64,000 bases of DNA from Escherichia coli (GTDB lineage: Bacteria > Pseudomonadota > Gammaproteobacteria > Enterobacterales > Enterobacteriaceae). This document shows positions 223-63,691 of this stretch, piece after piece; within the stretch, counting starts at the first letter, position 1; the number at the start of each line of letters is the position of its first letter. The notes beneath the pieces are model-generated. The model was not told the origin of the DNA, searched no databases, and was given only the letters and a program-made list of their open reading frames with translations. The translations under genes and the position numbers were made by a program. Location: assembly GCF_011045215.1 (NCBI RefSeq), contig NZ_CP049201.1; one strand, written 5' to 3'.

Positions 223-768
223 TTACAAACCAACGCGCGCTTTCATCCAGCCATAGACAAACGACTCATTGGCCTCGCGTTTCTCTGCCAGCTCCAGATA
301 ACGCTCGCCCTGCGTACAGTTCAGGGCTTTCACCAGTACCAGTTCACCATCCCTGCTGCGATTTTTCAGATATGCCCGTAACGCATTAAGAGTACGCGGT
401 CCGATGCGTCCATCTGCATCCATATCCGGATAGAGTTTCCCGCGCAGGTTAAAAACATTCAGCCAGCGCTGAAGCATTCTGGACGCCACGGCTGGTCCCA
501 TGTTCACGCCCGTGTCGCACAACTCTGCGGCAATATCCGGAGACAGATTCTCAACCTGGTCGAATCGTGGTCCGTACCAGTAGTCCGCCTCGAGTATTTC
601 CAGCGCCTGCCCACGCGTCAGGTCACGCATATCGCCCTGATAACCGTGTGCACGGGCAACTTTTTCAGTGATGCCCCATTTAGTCGGACCACCTTTATCA
701 TCCGGGTGATTGACGTAACCGCCCTCTTTTCCCAGAATTTCGTCAAAAATTTCATCTTTCGACTTCAT
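223..768 (-). CDS. phage endolysin, GH108-like lysozyme with peptidoglycan-binding C-terminal region
   Basis: ORF-track protein carries the IFDEILGKEGGYVNHPDDKGGPTKWGIT motif typical of GH108 lysozymes; start placed at internal ATG 766-768 preceded by GAAGG; last gene of lysis cassette. Confidence 0.75.
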   Translation of the reverse strand: MKSKDEIFDEILGKEGGYVNHPDDKGGPTKWGITEKVARAHGYQGDMRDLTRGQALEILEADYWYGPRFDQVENLSPDIAAELCDTGVNMGPAVASRMLQRWLNVFNLRGKLYPDMDADGRIGPRTLNALRAYLKNRSRDGELVLVKALNCTQGERYLELAEKREANESFVYGWMKARVGL

Positions 769-769
769 A

Positions 770-1060
770 TCAGCGCCTTCGTAATACAAGGATTTTTGAT
801 ACGTTCCCGCGTGCTCGTATCACCAGCACGCAGAACACCAGGTTAATCAGGACGACCAGCCAGTTACCGGGTGGAAAGCGACCACACAGATAACAAAGCG
901 GCGCAAAGGCATAAAGCAGCATCAGCAGCCAGGCCAGCCACGACATCAGCGGTTTATGTCTCGACTCACCACGACGATAAAAAAAGAGCGTCAGCACGAT
1001 AACCGTGCTTAACACCACATTCAGTAATCCGGGAAGGTTACTTAACATTACCGCCTCCAC
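770..1060 (-). CDS. small hydrophobic lysis-cassette membrane protein (holin/antiholin-like accessory)
   Basis: 96-aa ORF with two long hydrophobic stretches, wedged between the putative holin and the endolysin with short overlaps. Confidence 0.45.
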   Translation of the reverse strand: MEAVMLSNLPGLLNVVLSTVIVLTLFFYRRGESRHKPLMSWLAWLLMLLYAFAPLCYLCGRFPPGNWLVVLINLVFCVLVIRARGNVSKILVLRRR

Positions 1061-1427
1061 CCCGCAGACGGGAGAACAGCCCGGATACCAGCGATGCGAT
1101 ATCCTGCTGGTGGATGAATGAGAGAATCTTCACTGACACCACCGATACCAGTACCGCACAAAGCGCGTCGAGAGATGTGCTGTGGAGATTCAGTTTTTCA
1201 ACCAGGTAAGACGCCATCACATCCGCCCCCAGCACGCCAACAATGAACGACACCAGAAAATGCGCTGCCACACGCCAGACAGAAATCTTCTGTGGTATCG
1301 TGGCCACAAACAGCGCCCCTGCGAATGCACCAAACACAATCCCGAAATCCGTTCCGGTAAACAGCCCGAATACCGTCGCCCCGCCGAGCGCCGCAGCCGT
1401 GCCGGAACCGGATAAGGGTTCAGACAT
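1038..1427 (-). CDS. putative phage holin
   Basis: Track ORF 1038..1640 trimmed to ATG at 1425-1427 preceded by AGGAGA; 129 aa, glycine-rich hydrophobic segments (GTAAALGGATVFGLFTG...), directly upstream of endolysin. Confidence 0.6.
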   Translation of the reverse strand: MSEPLSGSGTAAALGGATVFGLFTGTDFGIVFGAFAGALFVATIPQKISVWRVAAHFLVSFIVGVLGADVMASYLVEKLNLHSTSLDALCAVLVSVVSVKILSFIHQQDIASLVSGLFSRLRGGGGNVK

Positions 1428-1443
1428 ACTTTTTCTCCTGTAA

Positions 1444-1468
1444 ATAAAAAAGGGCCGCTGTCGGCCCG
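1444..1468 (-). terminator. hairpin plus T-run on minus strand, immediately upstream of holin (tR'-like)
   Basis: GGGCCG-ctgt-CGGCCC stem at 1453-1468 flanked by A-runs on plus strand, so T-run follows hairpin on minus strand. Confidence 0.4.
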
Positions 1469-1597
1469 TAAAAAAACACCCCGTCAAAGGCACCCGCAGA
1501 TGCCTTTTGTGTGGTGTTATCTGGTGTTTTCTGATGTGGTGTGTGCAGGACACAGATGTGAAAAAGGTCCGCCGGTACGAACCCTGTGTATGGATAA

Positions 1598-1625
1598 AAA
1601 AATGCCCGTCATGAGACGGGCTAAC
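1598..1625 (-). terminator. second hairpin plus T-run on minus strand
   Basis: GCCCGTC-atga-GACGGGC preceded on plus strand by AAAAAAA (T-run after hairpin on minus strand). Confidence 0.35.
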
Positions 1626-1675
1626 GCATTCATCATGCAAGAGTTAAGCAGGATTACCTGTATCGAATTATCGGT

Positions 1676-1751
1676 ATCAGAATGAGTCGTCAACCTGCAA
1701 CGCAATTCTGACGAATCGTAGACCCCGGTTCAGGCGACGACTCATTCTGAT
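1676..1751. repeat. 16-bp perfect inverted repeat with 44-nt spacer
   Basis: ATCAGAATGAGTCGTC at 1676-1691 and GACGACTCATTCTGAT at 1736-1751 are exact reverse complements. Confidence 0.7.
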
Positions 1752-1906
1752 AACGCATACCATTAACAATGTAAAAAACACAGCACTGAAACTGTAACCG
1801 GCCAGGCATTACAGAATGAAGAAAATAAAGTGTCCGCAACCAGATTCTTCACGAAAATTCGTCAGTGCTGATAAAGCTATGACTCATCAGTTTTACTGGA
1901 GAACGG

Positions 1907-1982
1907 TGGCGGGAATCGAACCCACATCATCAGCCTGGAAAGCTGAGGTAATAGCCATTATACGATACCCGCATACTGTGCT
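1907..1982 (-). tRNA. tRNA-Gly(UCC)-like pseudo-tRNA; acceptor 3' strand not complementary
   Basis: Minus strand reads GCGGGTATCGTATAATGGCTATTACCTCAGCTTTCCAGGCTGATGATGTGGGTTCGATTCCCGC, near-identical to E. coli glyT through D, anticodon (loop TTTCCAG) and T arms, but then continues CACCGTTCTCCA, which cannot pair with the 5' GCGGGTA. Confidence 0.4.
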
Positions 1983-2190
1983 GGCTTCCGGAATCACACG
2001 AATTACCGGGAAAGCCAGCACTGGTCTTTCCGGTGGCAAGCAACACCCCTGTGAACATAAAGACAACCACCTTCCGGACCAGTCAGAATACTAACGACAG
2101 TTTTTCAGACATCAAAAATATATTTGGTGTTCAGTTTTAAATATGTGTATACATCTGTATCAGAAATATACAACTTATATCATCACTGAA

Positions 2191-3237
2191 TTAAAAATCT
2201 TTCGTTATTTCTCTGACCGTCTGATTAAAACGTTCCTCTTCCAGTTCCACGCCAATCGCCCTGCGTCCCAGCAACAGTGCCGCTTTTATCGTGGAACCTG
2301 ACCCCATAAAAAAATCTGCGACCAAATCGCCTGGACGGCTGCTGGCAGTAATTATCTGACGCAACATATCCGCCGGTTTTTCACAGGGATGTTTGCCCGG
2401 ATAATACTGCACGGGCTTGTGCGTCCAGACATCCGTATAAGGAACGACAGCCGATACGGAAAAATAACGCCGCAGTGATTTGTATTCCTCCAGCAGGCTG
2501 ACATATTGCCGGTTCAGTTCGCTGTATGTGCTGACCAGCTGGTGATGTGGCTGCTCCAGTTCACCGCGCTGGTGTTTTTCTGCCGCCACACGTGCAAACA
2601 GCGCCTGCAGTTTACTGTAATCGGCCTCATTCGGTAACTGCCACTGACTGGTACCAAACCAGTGCGAAACCATGTTTTTCTTTCCGGTGGCTTCAGCTAT
2701 CTGTTTTGACGTTATCCCCAGTGATTCACGCGCATCACGGAAGTAAGAAATCAGCGGGGCCATCACGTGCTGTTTAAGCTCGCGCCCCTTTGCCGCATAG
2801 CCGTCATTTTTTGGCTGGTATGGCCCCTGATAATGTTCAGCAAACAGAATGCGCTCTGTTGCCGGGAAATACGCCCGCAGGCTTTCCTTGTTGCACCCGT
2901 TCCAGCGTCCGGACGGCTTCGCCCAGATAATGTGGTTCAGCACATTAAAGCGCTCACGCATCATGATTTCGGTGTCAGATGCCAGGCGATGACCACAGAA
3001 CAGGTAAAGACTTCCGGCAGGCTTCAGTACCCGCCAGAACTGCGCCAGACATCGGTCCAGCCATTGCAGGTAATCATCGTCGCCCTTCCACTGGTTATCC
3101 CAGCCCTCGGGCTTCACTTTAAAGTATGGCGGGTCTGTGACTATCAGATCGACAGAGTTTTCCGGTAATGTCCGGATAAATTCCAGGCAATCCGCGTTGA
3201 TTAACTCACAACTGGATATTTTTACAGTATTAGCCAT
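2191..3237 (-). CDS. DNA methyltransferase (N6-adenine or N4-cytosine type), orphan
   Basis: 348 aa with DPPY motif near N-terminus (LIVTDPPYF) and FxGxG AdoMet motif near C-terminus (FFMGSGST); no nuclease recognised alongside. Confidence 0.85.
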   Translation of the reverse strand: MANTVKISSCELINADCLEFIRTLPENSVDLIVTDPPYFKVKPEGWDNQWKGDDDYLQWLDRCLAQFWRVLKPAGSLYLFCGHRLASDTEIMMRERFNVLNHIIWAKPSGRWNGCNKESLRAYFPATERILFAEHYQGPYQPKNDGYAAKGRELKQHVMAPLISYFRDARESLGITSKQIAEATGKKNMVSHWFGTSQWQLPNEADYSKLQALFARVAAEKHQRGELEQPHHQLVSTYSELNRQYVSLLEEYKSLRRYFSVSAVVPYTDVWTHKPVQYYPGKHPCEKPADMLRQIITASSRPGDLVADFFMGSGSTIKAALLLGRRAIGVELEEERFNQTVREITKDF

Positions 3238-3902: not shown

Positions 3903-4913
3903 TTGTACGAAATACATTACGACGTTGAGTCTGAACAGCAAGCTTTTGAATTACTTGAACGTTACCTAAACGGACAAGCTTTACCCGAAAAAATTAGTTT
4001 CAATGGTTGGCCAAGTCTAACCATCAGGTTGACTGGTGAAAAATTCAACAAATCACTCACACCTTCAGTTATGAAAGGATTTGTTGAAATGCAATCGCAA
4101 CTCAATAAGTCTTATGCGCTAGCAAAGTTCGGAACTCCTGATGTCCGCAGGCTAACAAAAGAAGAACTTGATGCTTTAGAAATTGAAGTTACAGTAGAGC
4201 AAGGTTCATCTCTTGTAGAGATTAACATTGATGGCTTCCTAAGCAAGCTTACGCACGAACTGGTAGGGAAAATGAACGCCACAGAGATTGTATTTACGGT
4301 TCTCGGTGCTGCCGTTATATGGGGCGGTGTAACCGTCTTCAAACGCTATCTGGATAACCGTAAAGATACTCGGTTGGCTGAAATTGCTAAAGAAGGCGAC
4401 AAAGAACACCTACGCGCAATGCAAGTGATGACACAGGAGGAAACAAAACGCCTCCAAATCATCTCAGAAATGGTGGCTAAAAAACCTCTACTCGACAATA
4501 TGGATCGAATGTCTTATGACGCTAAAACCACCATGGTTAAATCTTTCGTGCGTTCAGATTCAGCAGAAATTGACGGTGTCACAATAGATTCAGAAACGGC
4601 AAAAGAGCTAGTAACAAATGCTCGTCGACGCTCAGTTGAAATGAGAATAGACGGTATATACCGTATCGAAGAAGTGAATAATACCGACCCCGAAAGCTTC
4701 AAAGTTAAGGTTCGAAAGGTCGATTCTGATCAACGTTTGACCTGCGTTGTTCAGGATATATTCCTTGATGAATCAGGGAACAAAGAAGCCTTACAGCGAG
4801 CTGAATGGGAAAGAAAGCCTGTGCATTTAAGCATCAATGCCAAACACATTGATGGAGATATCAAGTCCGCCGTAATTTTACATGTGAAAGATGTTGAAGA
4901 TAAGCCCGAGTAA
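3903..4913 (+). CDS. hypothetical protein with one central hydrophobic segment; AT-rich cargo gene, family not recognised
   Basis: 1011-nt ORF opposite to the late genes; TTG start 6 nt after GAGGGA (in-frame TAG at 3885-3887 excludes an upstream ATG); 36 G+C in first 100 nt by hand count; hydrophobic stretch EIVFTVLGAAVIWGGVTVF. Confidence 0.7.
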   Translation: MYEIHYDVESEQQAFELLERYLNGQALPEKISFNGWPSLTIRLTGEKFNKSLTPSVMKGFVEMQSQLNKSYALAKFGTPDVRRLTKEELDALEIEVTVEQGSSLVEINIDGFLSKLTHELVGKMNATEIVFTVLGAAVIWGGVTVFKRYLDNRKDTRLAEIAKEGDKEHLRAMQVMTQEETKRLQIISEMVAKKPLLDNMDRMSYDAKTTMVKSFVRSDSAEIDGVTIDSETAKELVTNARRRSVEMRIDGIYRIEEVNNTDPESFKVKVRKVDSDQRLTCVVQDIFLDESGNKEALQRAEWERKPVHLSINAKHIDGDIKSAVILHVKDVEDKPE

Positions 4914-4928: not shown

Positions 4929-5309
4929 TCAAGATTCCACTTCGGCATCCATTTCTAAACTTACATCCAACATACTCAGGCAACCGTCGATAAACCCTTC
5001 AGCCATCTGTATCTCTATACGTATCAATTTCTCATCCTTCCAACGCGCCTTTGCAATCTTGCGCTTGGATATCCTGTATAAATAATGTGCCACAAGAAGC
5101 GAATGCTCATAAGGCCTTTTTTGCTTTAAACAAGCAAGACAACCTTCAATAATTAATGCGTCACTATCTGAACAAGCCAGGCGTTTCTTACTGGTATAGG
5201 GCAGAAGTCCCTTAAACCCGGCAGCTATAGGTGAATAGTCCACACCCGAGCTATCACTAGCCGCCCATGCCCCCCAACGCTCAAGAACCATCTGAATATC
5301 ACGCGCCAT
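4929..5309 (-). CDS. late-gene antiterminator Q (QuuD/DLP12-type)
   Basis: MARDIQMVLERWGAWAA...IAAGFKGL...LEMD matches the remembered QuuD sequence; sits after rusA as in lambdoid nin-Q regions. Confidence 0.75.
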   Translation of the reverse strand: MARDIQMVLERWGAWAASDSSGVDYSPIAAGFKGLLPYTSKKRLACSDSDALIIEGCLACLKQKRPYEHSLLVAHYLYRISKRKIAKARWKDEKLIRIEIQMAEGFIDGCLSMLDVSLEMDAEVES

Positions 5310-5670
5310 CGTTACCACCTGTAATTTCGTAAATCTTCACACCCAGCCGACCACCAGGTACGCGCTGACCGCGCACAATATTAATTTCATCAAACTGCTC
5401 GTCGTCGATAAGCAACCCCGCATGTGTCAGTGCATCCAGTGGTGCTTTCAGAATATTGTCCAGGTCACGACGGCGCTTATCCGGTGGCTCTGCAGTAATT
5501 TTTATTGCCAGCCTTCCGGACAGATTTAATTTCAGCCGCTGCTGGCGAACAATGAGCGCCACATCACGGCGATAACGCTCACCGGCTTTTGATACAAAAT
5601 ATGTGCTGCCACGACGTCGCCAGTAGGTGTTTACCGTCGGCGGGTAAGGCAAAACAAACTCTATACGCAT
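5299..5670 (-). CDS. rusA: RusA-family Holliday junction resolvase
   Basis: 123 aa; PPTVNTYWRRRGSTY and RRRDLDN motifs match RusA. Confidence 0.85.
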   Translation of the reverse strand: MRIEFVLPYPPTVNTYWRRRGSTYFVSKAGERYRRDVALIVRQQRLKLNLSGRLAIKITAEPPDKRRRDLDNILKAPLDALTHAGLLIDDEQFDEINIVRGQRVPGGRLGVKIYEITGGNDGA

Positions 5671-7492: not shown

Positions 7493-7648
7493 TTACTCCT
7501 CAGATTCGTAAGCTGTGAAGACAGCGACCTCCGTCTGGCCGGTTCGGATTCGTACCTCGCAGAGGTCTTTCCTCATTACCAGTGCCGTCACTATGACGGT
7601 TAAACAGATGACGATCAGGGCGATTAACATCGCCTTTTGCTGCTTCAT
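7493..7648 (-). CDS. hok: Hok/Gef-family type I toxin
   Basis: MKQQKAMLIALIVICLTVIVTALVMRKDLCEVRIRTGQTEVAVFTAYESEE is near-identical to remembered HokD; AAGGAG 7 nt upstream. Confidence 0.85.
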   Translation of the reverse strand: MKQQKAMLIALIVICLTVIVTALVMRKDLCEVRIRTGQTEVAVFTAYESEE

Positions 7649-7705
7649 AGCCTGCTTCTCCTTGCCTTTCGGCACGTAAGAGGCTAACCTACGTTTGTGT
7701 AGCAT
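7493..7705 (-). CDS. mok-like overlapping reading frame
   Basis: In-frame N-terminal extension (MLHKRRLASYVPKGKEKQA) upstream of the hok ATG, as in hok/mok/sok loci. Confidence 0.45.
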   Translation of the reverse strand: MLHKRRLASYVPKGKEKQAMKQQKAMLIALIVICLTVIVTALVMRKDLCEVRIRTGQTEVAVFTAYESEE

Positions 7706-8102
7706 AGATTGGGCCTCAGATTAATGTTAAGCGTCTTGCCGGACGCGTAATGTTAACTGGGGCTTTTCTCTGTCTGCCTTACAGTGGCATGCCCGAGGCA
7801 GACAGCCTCAGGCACCCGCAACAATCTTACCGACACCGATAAGAAAACGCTATTTTTTATTGCCAGAACCTTCTGCCCAGGCTAATGTATCCGCGTCAGA
7901 ACGGCGCAATGCGCTCGCCTGAGATACGTTTACTTGTCATTGGTGGCAACAGATAACGGCAATTGTTGTTTCTGTTTGTTTCCTTCAAAAACCCCGGACC
8001 ATCAATCCGGGGTTTTTGTTTGTTATCCCCAGCGGCAAATCGAATACACCATCAGCGCCACCGCCATCGCAATTCCTGCCGTTGTGAATGCTTCAGGCCA
8101 GG

Positions 8103-14841: not shown

Positions 14842-15231
14842 ATGGACATGAGAAAAAAGCAATACGACACCCCGCTAGCAGAAAGGTTAGATGCGATCTC
14901 TCAACAGCATCATTTAAGTGGTTCAGATTTAGCGCGTATCGCTGGTGTAGGTCGTTCATCAGTCAACGCATGGAAAAAAAGAGGAACAATCAGTAAAGAT
15001 TCCGCAGCCAAAATTGCAGAAGCCACAAACGTTTCCCTTTCTTGGCTACTGACAGGGAAAGAAGAGACAAATAGAGAAGCGCTTGATGATGACGAGAAGG
15101 CCCTGCTTGATGTTTACAGAAACCTGCCACCTGTAGAACGTAGAAATATGCTGGCAGCTTTTCAAATGCGACTTCAAAAACTGACCGAATTTTACTCAGA
15201 ATACGTCGACCCAATAACACGACAAAAATAA
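14842..15231 (+). CDS. prophage repressor-like HTH protein (XRE family, no peptidase domain)
   Basis: 129 aa; HTH segment LSGSDLARIAGVGRSSVNAWKK; divergent from the Cro-like gene across a 103-bp operator region. Confidence 0.65.
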   Translation: MDMRKKQYDTPLAERLDAISQQHHLSGSDLARIAGVGRSSVNAWKKRGTISKDSAAKIAEATNVSLSWLLTGKEETNREALDDDEKALLDVYRNLPPVERRNMLAAFQMRLQKLTEFYSEYVDPITRQK

Positions 15232-20949: not shown

Positions 20950-21198
20950 ATGGCAAGACTTATTCTGCTCACTGAGTGGGCAAAAGAGGAATTCAGCGAT
21001 CCGGTCCCTACTCCGGGCACGTTAAGTAAATACGCTAAAGCCGGAATGATATTTCCTCTCCCCAAAAAAGTTGGAAGACACTGGCGAGTGGATCCACGAG
21101 CTCGCTTTGTCGGAATGGTAAACAAGCCGGAGGTGATCGCCACAGATCACCCTGCTTTGAAGAGGATACTGGAAGATGGCGCGCCCGCGAAAATATAA
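20950..21198 (+). CDS. xis: excisionase (lambda Xis-like)
   Basis: 82 aa, overlaps int start as in lambda; GMIFPLPKKVGRHWRVDPRARFVG resembles lambda Xis. Confidence 0.7.
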   Translation: MARLILLTEWAKEEFSDPVPTPGTLSKYAKAGMIFPLPKKVGRHWRVDPRARFVGMVNKPEVIATDHPALKRILEDGAPAKI

Positions 21199-22306
21199 AA
21201 CCGAAGTTCCGGGACTATCTCCGTATTTTGACAAAAGAAATAACAAAGTTTACTGGCGTTACAGGCATCCCATAACAGGCAAAAATCACGGTCTCGGCAG
21301 TATTGACCAGAAACTGGCAGAAACTATTGCAGCAGAAGCGAACAGCCGTCTTGCCAGGCAGCAAATGGAACAAATGCTCAGTCTGCAGGAGAAAATTATT
21401 AATGATACCGGCGGTTCATCAACCGTTTCCATTTTTCTGAATAATTACAGAAAAATTCAACAGGAAAGATATGAAAACGGAGAGATCAAACTCAACACGC
21501 TGAAACAAAAAGCGGCCCCTCTCAGGGTATTTGATGAACGTTTTGGCACCAGACCGTTAGATGCCATAACTGTAAAAGATGTGGTATCGGTGCTGGAAGA
21601 GTACAAGGCCAGAGGACATAACAGAATGGGGCAAATTTTCAGGAAGGTACTGATCGATGTTTTCCGGGAAGCTCAGCAAACAGGCGATGTTCCGCCAGGC
21701 TTTAACCCTGCAGAATCGGCAAAAAAACCGCAGGTGCGGATATCAAGACAGCGACTGACTTTTGATGAGTGGATGATGATTTATAACGCAGCGGAAAAGG
21801 ATGGTTACTTTTTACAGCGCGGCATGCTGCTGGCACTGATGACAGGCCAGCGCCTTTCAGATATTTGCAAAATGCAATTTTCGGATATCCGGGATGGTTA
21901 TCTTCATGTCGAACAGCAAAAAACAGGAACCCGGATTGCCATCCCTCTTGCTCTGCGTTGCAATAAATTAAATCTCACCCTGGATGATGTGGTGTCATCC
22001 TGTCGCGATTGCGTTCTTAGTCCGTGGCTATTGCACCACCATCATGCGAAAGGGACAGCCAAGCGCGGCGGGATGGTTAAGCCAGCAACGTTAACAGTTG
22101 CATTTAAAAAAGCGCGGGATTCTGTGGATTACAACTGGCGTGCTAATGGCACCCCACCCTCTTTCCATGAGCAGAGATCTTTATCAGAGCGATTGTTCAG
22201 AGAGCAGGGAATTGATACCCAAATTTTGCTGGGTCATTCGAATCAAAAAATGACCGATATTTACAACGATGCACGCGGCAAGGAGTGGAAAAAACTGGTC
22301 ATTTGA
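21176..22306 (+). CDS. int: tyrosine integrase (lambda Int family)
   Basis: 376 aa; LTFDEWMMIYNAA...LALMTGQRLSDICKMQFSDIRDGYLHVEQQKTGTRIAIPLAL aligns with remembered lambda Int catalytic region. Confidence 0.9.
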   Translation: MARPRKYKTEVPGLSPYFDKRNNKVYWRYRHPITGKNHGLGSIDQKLAETIAAEANSRLARQQMEQMLSLQEKIINDTGGSSTVSIFLNNYRKIQQERYENGEIKLNTLKQKAAPLRVFDERFGTRPLDAITVKDVVSVLEEYKARGHNRMGQIFRKVLIDVFREAQQTGDVPPGFNPAESAKKPQVRISRQRLTFDEWMMIYNAAEKDGYFLQRGMLLALMTGQRLSDICKMQFSDIRDGYLHVEQQKTGTRIAIPLALRCNKLNLTLDDVVSSCRDCVLSPWLLHHHHAKGTAKRGGMVKPATLTVAFKKARDSVDYNWRANGTPPSFHEQRSLSERLFREQGIDTQILLGHSNQKMTDIYNDARGKEWKKLVI

Positions 22307-22351: not shown

Positions 22352-22990
22352 TTAAAAGCGGTACCCGGCAGAGAACATAAACACCCACGGATCCAGTCGT
22401 ACCGCGTCTTTCACGGGTGTTCCGTTAGATTTATAGCTGGCTGTGGTATCGATATCCATGTACCACACTGACATGTTAACCAACCAGTCACGGTTAATCA
22501 GATAATCAACCCCCACCTGCCCGGCAGCTCCCCAGGAATCTTTCAGACTGAGATCGGAAAGCCCCGCCTCTTTGCCATGATCGTTAAATCCATTATCAAA
22601 GAAGGTGGTGTAGTTAATACCTGCCCCAACATAAGGACGGAATTTGCTGCTGGCATCACCAAAATACCACTGCGCCATCAGTGTTGGCGGCAGATGATGA
22701 ACGGTTGCAATATCGCCGGTCGCCCGGGTGCCGATTTTATGGCGGAACGGCGTCGCTGCCAGTAATTCCACACCAATGTTGTCGGTCGCCATATAAGTAA
22801 ACGTCAGGCCCAGTTGAGTGTTATTGGTCACGCTGAATCCACCCAGACTTCCTAACGTACCACCAGCACCTTCTGTTGGACGTACGGTTGCAGAACCTGC
22901 ACGCATAAAAAATTCGCCTGCTTCATGCGCAAAGGCACTGCCAGAGAGAAGAGTTGTTACTGCCAAAGCCGCCACTGTTAACTTTTTCAT
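22352..22990 (-). CDS. ompW: outer membrane protein W
   Basis: 212 aa with signal peptide; matches E. coli OmpW. Confidence 0.95.
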   Translation of the reverse strand: MKKLTVAALAVTTLLSGSAFAHEAGEFFMRAGSATVRPTEGAGGTLGSLGGFSVTNNTQLGLTFTYMATDNIGVELLAATPFRHKIGTRATGDIATVHHLPPTLMAQWYFGDASSKFRPYVGAGINYTTFFDNGFNDHGKEAGLSDLSLKDSWGAAGQVGVDYLINRDWLVNMSVWYMDIDTTASYKSNGTPVKDAVRLDPWVFMFSAGYRF

Positions 22991-47186: not shown

Positions 47187-47271
<85 letters not shown>

Positions 47272-47430
47272 TCACTTTCAAAAGTACCTGAACTCTCAAG
47301 CGAATCCGTAAATAAATATTCTGCCCAAGCGGGGAAGGACGAGAAGCTTCGACCAAGGTTCGACTCGAGCGCCAGCGAGAGAGCGTTGCCGCAGGCAACG
47401 ACCCGAAGGGCGAAGCGCGCAGCGCTGAGT

Positions 47431-47449
47431 AATCCTTCCTCCACCACCA
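47431..47449 (+). repeat. direct repeat of the tRNA-Tyr 3' end (tyrT downstream repeat unit)
   Basis: AATCCTTCCTCCACCACCA matches the tRNA 3' terminus with one mismatch; an AAGGTTCGAcTC partial copy lies at about 47357. Confidence 0.6.
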
Positions 47450-63287: not shown

Positions 63288-63691
63288 CAGTTATATCTCC
63301 TCCGATGACGGAAATCGGGGGAGATAATATAAATTCCTGCTTATTGTATTTCTTCATACTACCTGGACAGGTCGTTAATCAGAATTGCGAGCCTGTACCA
63401 CAACCTGCACGAATCCACTGCAACAGCTGTTGAAAAGCCGGAATGTACTCTTCATTGCAAACATTTCAGGGATGAAGTGAAGATGAATTGAGACGTAGTA
63501 TCCACACCAAGCCGGCGTTATCCGGTGAGGCGCAATGTTGCGGGGGCTTTATCCCTGGTGGCATTGGTTGCTGGAAAGAGAAAACCCCCGCACGTTGAGA
63601 GGTAAAACCTGACAACAGAACGGGGGCTAATCTTGAAACCAGACACTTCAAGAATAGCCGCAAAATGTTGTCATTACAACAAGGCGGCTAT

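Follow-up and report, generated by a model that had tools for sequence, protein, structure and literature searches.

A Probable Point-Mutated Pseudogene of a Phage-Borne tRNA-Gly(UCC) in an Escherichia coli Lambdoid Prophage

The stretch of Escherichia coli DNA analyzed here (64 kb, referred to below as the window) begins with a lambdoid prophage, and a tRNA-like locus in the late region of this prophage very probably derives from a phage-borne tRNA-Gly(UCC) gene that point mutations have turned into a pseudogene. The gene was almost certainly inactivated by the loss of one base and the substitution of two others. This interpretation is directly supported by homology, by synteny, by the exact lesions, by the predicted loss of the cloverleaf, and by a graded series of alleles in related prophages. 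The locus is an ordinary decaying accessory gene of a well-known kind and not a recombination scar.

Prophage and host context

The host is E. coli: complete genomes match the purU-tyrT-nar segment of the window at up to 99.5% identity. The lambdoid prophage, integrated beside ompW, occupies the first 22.3 kb, and its best match in the complete-genome collection is at ~94 to 98%. The minus strand encodes, in this order, a CII-like activator, a replication initiator, a DnaC-like loader, a hok/sok module, a DUF968/HNH-type protein, RusA, and the antiterminator Q. Q is followed by a 336-aa open reading frame (ORF) on the plus strand, a PHROG 331 gene, a methyltransferase gene, the tRNA-like element, two terminator-like hairpins, two holin genes, and the gene of a GH108 endolysin (Table 1). 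The protein genes that were compared with PHROGs or NCBIfam gave essentially full-length profile matches, and this part of the prophage is therefore not grossly degraded. The first-pass annotation had placed the element in the Q-to-lysis interval; with Q, the methyltransferase, two holins, and the endolysin as its neighbors, it does lie there, and the same placement holds for the whole family. The putative hairpins, which come from a scan that found 12 such structures in the region versus 4.2 expected, lie between the tRNA and the holin start, and, in the absence of antitermination by Q, they may insulate the lysis genes from a methyltransferase-tRNA unit.

Table 1. Features of the prophage and of the tRNA homologue, in window coordinates
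Feature	Coordinates	Strand	Basis or remark
Integrase	21176-22306		
ompW	22990..22352	-	
Repressor-like gene	14842-15231	+	
Antiterminator Q-like gene	5318..4929	-	PHROG 79, E = 9e-45; start of the Q-to-lysis interval
DNA methyltransferase, full length	2191..3237	-	PHROG 6025/67, E ~1e-105; directly upstream of the tRNA homologue and co-directional
Probable pseudo-tRNA-Gly(UCC)	1897..1972	-	Rfam RF00005; alignments to glyT and phage alleles
Anticodon UCC	1937..1939	-	Inside the loop UUUCCAG (1941..1935)
C50->U in the T stem, U50·G64 wobble	1924	-	Allele alignments
Lesions, almost certainly disabling	1903..1906	-	Allele alignments; differences from contig L019 at 1903 and 1904
Two strong terminator-like hairpins with T runs	1621..1604, 1467..1452	-	Consensus scan only
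Lysis cassette	223..1427	-	PHROG 198, 217, 315
Holin	1427..1038	-	Lysis cassette
Holin	1060..770	-	Lysis cassette
GH108-type endolysin	789..223	-	Lysis cassette

Two other readings of this region were tried and rejected. The ORFs at 1640..223 had been considered a second nin/Q region (DUF1367/DUF1364/DUF1133, as in strain C5), but PHROGs identified them as holin, holin, and endolysin. A module junction at the tRNA was ruled out, since three related loci (L004 to L006) share the lysis order and C5 has a rearranged genome.

Further elements were observed in the window. The hok/sok-type module of the prophage (7493-7817, minus strand) comprises an Rfam sok match of 109 bits at 7643-7817 and a MokW/Hok-like ORF of PHROG 251 at 7493-7705, also on the minus strand. 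The 336-aa ORF between Q and the methyltransferase (3903-4913, plus strand) matches PHROG 6191, a family of unknown function, over its full length, with no significant match in Pfam and none in NCBIfam. Relatives have an OmpC porin (C5 and EC11) or a CPBP protease (BCE049 and TK3046) in the same place; given these differing occupants, it is a variable “moron” slot. In the host region (47187-47449, plus strand), an RtT element (129 bits) comes after a lone tRNA-Tyr(GUA), at a site where K-12 carries the tyrT-tyrV tandem. An rdlD-type antitoxin RNA (91 bits) is located at 63579-63644 on the minus strand, near the window end.

Sequence of the tRNA homologue

The tRNA homologue reads from 1972 to 1897 on the minus strand, with the sequence GCGGGTATCGTATAATGGCTATTACCTCAGCTTTCCAGGCTGATGATGTGGGTTCGATTCCCGCCACCGTTCTCCA (given also as GCGGGUAUCGUAUAAUGGCUAUUACCUCAGCUUUCCAGGCUGAUGAUGUGGGUUCGAUUCCCGCCACCGUUCUCCA). 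G1 is at 1972, the discriminator U is at 1902, and the trailer CUCCA spans 1901-1897. The first-pass annotation had described a glyT-like pseudo-tRNA at 1907-1982. The sequence features that it named are present, among them the anticodon loop TTTCCAG with its UCC, but its coordinates are 10 nt too high: they include 10 nt of 5' leader and omit most of the 3' strand that it quoted, CACCGTTCTCCA, which corresponds to 1908..1897.

The alignments show intact D, anticodon, and T arms and a broken acceptor stem. With K-12 glyT (NC_000913.3, 4175673-4175747) as the reference, 61 of the first 65 nucleotides are identical, the four differences being C6T, C32T, A38G, and C50T, and the D arm, the anticodon UCC, and the T loop GGTTCGATTCC are shared. 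Unlike glyT, which belongs to the thrU-tyrU-glyT-thrT-tufB operon, the window copy is phage borne and lies outside the tufB operon; it has U6, U32, G38, and U50, its 3' strand reads CA-CCGUU where glyT has UGCCCGCU, and its CCA is displaced by 2 nt.

The lesions are best defined against the phage alleles described below. The CCC run at tRNA positions 68 to 70 has lost one C, which leaves CC at 1906-1905 and shifts the register of the 3' acceptor strand. C72 is replaced by U at 1903, so that the G1-C72 pair becomes G1·U. The third change, C50U, also occurs in R1/K99B-type alleles that have an intact acceptor stem. Two ORFs that overlap the tRNA, 1816-2094 (plus strand, 92 aa, without a PHROG match) and 1893-2066 (minus strand, 57 aa), were treated as spurious. 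A permissive Rfam search of 1400-2300 for other RNA families returned only a sub-threshold suhB/mmgR-like match at 1437-1498 (20 bits versus a threshold of 41), which was taken as chance.

tRNA model scores and predicted folding

The Rfam tRNA model RF00005 aligns to 1902-1972 of the minus strand over model positions 1 to 71 with a score of 36.4 bits, above the gathering score of 29 (E-value of 5.7e-4 for the 64-kb window and 8e-6 for a 900-nt region). Given this score and 97.5% identity over 120 nt to genes that PGAP annotates as tRNA-Gly, the resemblance to tRNA is not due to chance. The score is nevertheless 18 to 29 bits below those of the intact relatives, and ARAGORN, run on the 64 kb, called only the host tyrT and passed over the tRNA-Gly locus.

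Two findings had been named in advance as contrary to a broken tRNA, namely, the lack of a significant tRNA-model score and an acceptor stem that pairs fully at shifted boundaries. The former is not the case, as the bit score indicates, and the Infernal run disclosed no such stem. In register, the 3' strand CACCGTT forms only four of seven pairs with GCGGGTA, in line with the first-pass description of a noncomplementary 3' strand. The Infernal alignment requires a deleted column, equivalent to a bulged G, and gives five acceptor pairs, of which one is G1·U72, with A7 and C66 mismatched. The window allele thus scores above the Rfam threshold over the full length of the model and has the D arm, anticodon arm (a 7-nt loop with U33 and a purine at position 37), and T arm (GTTCGAxTC) of a functional tRNA, and what it lacks is the seven-base-pair acceptor stem.

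Folding predictions point to the same element. The window cloverleaf is 10.7 kcal/mol less stable than the minimum free energy (MFE) misfold. The corresponding gap is 7.9 kcal/mol for the BCE049 allele, 2.5 for the sublineage allele defined below, and 0.7 for the canonical phage allele as well as for glyT. In the predicted MFE structures of the alleles with the one-C deletion, the 5' GCGGG pairs with the T-arm CCCGC and not with the 3' end. RNAfold extends the predicted anticodon stem through U32·G38 and U33-A37, and G38 itself is unusual.

The identity elements of E. coli glycyl-tRNA synthetase (GlyRS) are G1:C72, C2:G71, G3:C70, U73, C35, and C36. The window allele keeps C35, C36, and the discriminator U, G1:C72 has become G1·U72, and the stem is shifted or bulged by the deletion at 68 to 70, so that, judged from its sequence, the allele would not present the full identity set. 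RNase P, EF-Tu, and the CCA-adding enzyme, for their part, measure a regular 12-bp acceptor/T helix. The discriminator is followed by CUCCA, with the CCA 2 nt out of register; this trailer is common to the whole sublineage, and C5_A-type alleles have no CCA at all. Addition of CCA by the host is possible in principle.

Relatives in the same late-region slot

A 121-nt query that spans the element found matches in 335 of 5,426 complete E. coli genomes, in nearly every case at a gene that PGAP labels “tRNA-Gly,” and the best of these is 97.5% identical over 120 aligned nt. A lone tRNA-Gly occupies the slot between methyltransferase and holin in CEA224S, BCE049, TK3046, RM11911, R1, K99B, OkiPb01716, KS-NP019, and C5. 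In Br_190_kylling, the slot contains tRNA-Ile(Met-CAT)/Arg/Thr/Gly, and in the phage SerU-LTIIb (KU052038), it contains Arg/Gly plus Thr/Gly. From Q through the PHROG 331 gene, the methyltransferase, the tRNA, and the two holins to the endolysin, the gene order of the window recurs in BCE049, TK3046, RM11911, R1, K99B, OkiPb01716, KS-NP019, and C5. By homology and by its position between Q/methyltransferase and the lysis genes, the window locus therefore belongs with the accessory tRNA genes of phages.

It shares its slot, its orientation, and U6 with the partner A67 with the tRNA-Gly(UCC) genes of lambdoid/P27-like prophages, and the C5/L019-type allele is the one to which it is 97.5% identical over 120 nt. 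Those phage genes have 6 or 7 acceptor pairs, score 54 to 66 bits, and are called by ARAGORN, whereas the window copy, with its one-C deletion, C72U, and C50U, is not called. A broader parallel is found in Shiga toxin phages of the 933W type, where the tRNA cluster ileZ-argN-argO lies upstream of the toxin and lysis genes. Both represent accessory tRNAs in the Q-to-lysis late region, which are thought to supply rare-codon tRNAs, and the methyltransferase adjoining the window tRNA shares 82 to 90% identity with its counterparts in phiP27 and many Stx2 phages. In contrast to these clusters, the window isoacceptor is Gly UCC, the copy is inactivated, and the part of the prophage seen has no stx genes. 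The methyltransferase homologues of the relatives carry the PGAP name “DNA-methyltransferase.” A literature search on tRNA-Gly of lambdoid prophages and on tRNA pseudogenes in prophages found nothing specific.

Strain C5 shows an arrangement of its own. At one locus (L001, 3365-4478, from NZ_CP010122.1), a pair of phage tRNA-Gly genes point toward one another across ~890 bp; nin/Q-type genes lie to one side and the methyltransferase to the other, a layout that suggests an inversion or a recombination between two prophages. C5 also carries a second methyltransferase-tRNA-holin module (L010).

A graded series of alleles

The alleles fall into four grades. The canonical phage allele scores 65.6 bits, as does the host glyT, from which it differs only by the compensated change C6-G67 to U6-A67; both have 7/7 acceptor pairs, and the phage allele has an encoded CCA. 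The second grade (54.3 bits), referred to here as the sublineage, has U32, G38, and C66, the last producing an A7·C66 mismatch, together with the out-of-register trailer. It is found in C5, TK3046, RM11911, R1, K99B, OkiPb01716, and ten IMG/VR contigs, and some copies add U50, U62 (L012-type), or A53 (L016) in the T stem. The third grade (41.4 bits), in BCE049 and KS-NP019, is the sublineage allele minus one C of the CCC run at 68 to 70. The fourth is the window allele itself, which combines the one-C deletion with C72U and C50U. ARAGORN called all alleles whose CCC run is intact and made no call for the three that carry the deletion.

As a baseline, we compiled at least 138 occurrences of the 5' 18-mer, representing at least 66 distinct alleles, from IMG/VR and the fetched loci, the E. 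coli loci among them having been chosen for their similarity to the window and not as a random sample. All seven acceptor pairs are present in 114 of the at least 138 occurrences, and the anticodon and T stems of these copies differ widely in sequence and yet stay paired. Six pairs are found in 18 occurrences (the sublineage plus L040), and three are truncated or fused fragments. Among the matches listed, only the window, BCE049, and KS-NP019 have a shifted 3' strand. These counts indicate that an intact acceptor stem is clearly the selected state and that the state of the window copy is a rare defect. Among the at least 66 alleles, G38 is confined to the sublineage, L135, and L040, and C72T occurs in no allele other than that of the window. 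The exact lesion, GGTTCGATTCCCGCCACCGYTCTCCAG, gave no match in metagenome contigs or in the contigs of GTDB representative genomes, and none of the ten sublineage matches from IMG/VR carries it.

Within the sublineage, 5 of 77 tRNA sites are variable (5 of 53 outside the search anchor), compared with 23 of 221 in the upstream spacer. The sublineage tRNA thus appears about as variable as the spacer, which would fit relaxed constraint, at a sample size with low power against mild constraint. All 20 sublineage copies agree throughout the 48 nt at the 5' end, 24 of these nucleotides being fixed by the search pattern itself.

Several single alleles depart from this series. In L040 (126-205), the anticodon arm is longer by 5 inserted nt, and A7·G66 is mismatched. 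L032, L095 (its second copy), and L102 are tRNA-Gly 5' fragments, truncated or fused to other sequence. L135 (329-403) is the canonical allele with A38G as its only change and is a possible intermediate toward the sublineage.

Residual function

Could the window copy still act as a tRNA-Gly, weakened but working? Such a molecule would have the bulged-G acceptor stem (G1·U72, C2-G71, G3-C70, G5-C68, and U6-A67), a trimmed trailer, and CCA added by the host. Some observations do favor it, and the same observations count against a pseudogene: Infernal aligns the sequence end to end with a score still above the gathering threshold, five acceptor pairs are possible with a single bulged G, so that a residual tRNA-like fold is conceivable, the D, anticodon, and T arms are intact, and the similar deletion allele of BCE049, like that of KS-NP019, is labeled by PGAP as a 71-nt tRNA-Gly. 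Set against these are the energy gap between the bulged cloverleaf and the MFE misfold, the rejection by ARAGORN, and, from established knowledge, the requirements for GlyRS identity and for a 12-bp helix; moreover, such a stem is found in none of the 114 intact alleles among the matches listed. We consider residual function very unlikely. The locus is a homologue of intact genes in which a required structural element has been destroyed, as is characteristic of a tRNA pseudogene.

Clustering and recurrence of the lesions

The nearest relative of the neighborhood is an IMG/VR contig (L019; IMGVR_UViG_2698536651_000005) that carries an intact sublineage gene. Over window positions 1659 to 2668 (1,010 nt), the two sequences differ only at 1903, 1904, and 1924; these positions fall within 22 nt and are all inside the 76-nt tRNA, with no difference in 245 nt on the 3' (holin) side and 696 nt on the 5' (methyltransferase) side. 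Over the longer interval from 898 to 2668, 3 of 11 differences lie in the tRNA, where ~0.5 would be expected, both intervals having been chosen post hoc. The one-C deletion, in turn, occurs on two haplotype backgrounds, as BCE049 and KS-NP019 resemble TK3046 and RM11911, and the window resembles L019 and C5. In BCE049 and KS-NP019, the deletion is the only difference from TK3046 and RM11911, whose run is intact, in ~700 nt. The one-C deletion was located within 3403-3478 of L004 and 1903-1978 of L014 by comparison with L005/L006.

The deletion on two backgrounds is a case of parallel loss or of micro-conversion. The two oddities, the clustered changes and the repeated deletion, may have been caused by independent slippage in the C run, by very short gene conversion between prophage copies, by selection against a drifted tRNA, or, in the window, by an assembly error. 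We regard them as minor. Three changes packed into 76 nt, with the remainder of the 1 kb identical, are not what simple neutral decay predicts, and this counts against the pseudogene reading.

Both oddities would be accounted for if the loss were not passive decay. A CCA-less sublineage tRNA with G38 and A7·C66 that harms the lysogen or the phage, for example, by misdecoding or frameshifting, would be disabled in its acceptor stem repeatedly in different lineages, which would explain the one-C deletion on two backgrounds and the location of all three changes inside 76 nt. Alternatively, the sequence may be kept outside translation, as an RNase P/E signal or processing element in the late transcript or as an anticodon-nuclease decoy, a role with which the invariance of the 5' 48 nt in 20 sublineage copies (24 nt fixed by the search pattern) would also agree. 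We judge selected loss or a nontranslational role to be very unlikely. The numbers are small and the intervals post hoc, C-to-T changes and slippage in C runs are the commonest mutations, and the deletion allele, found in few strains and in none of the matches from IMG/VR, metagenomes, and GTDB representatives, shows no conserved design.

An artifact of assembly or polishing would mean that the prophage really has the intact gene of the sublineage, like L019, and that its sequence was altered by collapsed reads from prophage copies or by a homopolymer error. The confinement of the differences to 22 nt of an otherwise identical kilobase would suit this idea, as would the homopolymer indel among them, the occurrence of T50 in other alleles, and the several module copies held by strains such as C5. 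The run is only 3 nt long, though, two complete genomes assembled independently show the same deletion, and C72T, being found in no other allele, cannot have come from mixing of reads with known copies; an artifact is accordingly highly improbable.

The first-pass annotation offered two origins for the element, a decayed phage tRNA and a truncated or chimeric remnant of an integration or recombination event at a gene resembling glyT. Synteny with the intact genes bears out the former, and the latter fails because the 3' strand is present, although mutated, the flanks are collinear, and ~19 kb separate the element from the integrase and the prophage/ompW junction; taken together, these points exclude a truncated or chimeric gene and an attachment site relic. 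Attachment site fragments (partial tRNA duplications at attL/attR) are likewise incomplete tRNA-like sequences in prophages, but they are true 3' fragments at prophage ends, next to the integrase and with an abrupt end of homology at the crossover, whereas the window copy is a full-length late-region gene with internal point lesions. Homology between phage groups in the wider family does end at the tRNA 3' end (CEA224S and Br_190), a break that is a feature of mosaic phage modules and not of the window copy. A truncated or chimeric origin is extremely unlikely: the mismatch between its 3' and 5' acceptor strands, that mosaic boundary, and the existence of truly truncated or fused fragments in IMG/VR (L032, L095, and L102) are outweighed by homology of the 3' strand and 3' flank to intact relatives, with a lesion that amounts to a 1-nt deletion and a transition, by flanks identical to L019 on both sides, and by the 5' 65 nt being the well-preserved portion, where att relics normally keep the 3' part.

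Discussion

A point-mutated pseudogene of a phage tRNA-Gly(UCC) would have the following history. Lambdoid prophages of E. coli commonly carry a glyT-derived tRNA-Gly(UCC), alone or in a small cluster, in the interval that separates the late-region methyltransferase from the lysis genes. An intact gene of this kind, which lies downstream of Q and points the same way as the late genes, is probably transcribed in the late, Q-dependent transcript; RNase P and 3' exonucleases would release its tRNA, and copies that do not encode CCA would have it added. We infer that its role is to provide decoding capacity for GGA and GGG, which make up 40% of Gly codons in the prophage ORFs and 25% in the host ORFs of the same window. 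The sublineage had already drifted, with U32, G38, A7·C66, and no in-register CCA, before a C disappeared from the 3' acceptor strand in the window prophage and C72U and C50U arose.

In the resulting RNA, the acceptor helix would be unable to form in register and the GlyRS positions G1:C72, C2:G71, and G3:C70 would be disrupted; in the predicted fold, the T arm becomes the pairing partner of the 5' strand, and the regular acceptor/T helix for RNase P, the CCA-adding enzyme, and EF-Tu would be lost. With the acceptor stem broken and its identity positions disrupted, no mature charged tRNA is expected. The window RNA is most likely neither processed nor charged and would have no role in translation, as far as can be judged from its predicted structure.

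The locus should therefore be labeled as a tRNA-Gly pseudogene and neither as a functional tRNA nor as an att or recombination scar, and the 71-nt “tRNA-Gly” genes that PGAP annotates in BCE049 and KS-NP019 are probably pseudogenes too. The allele series could serve as a test set for callers of tRNA pseudogenes. From intact through drifted to frame-shifted copies, it forms a small natural series for the decay of an accessory phage tRNA in a resident prophage whose neighboring lysis and regulatory genes remain intact.
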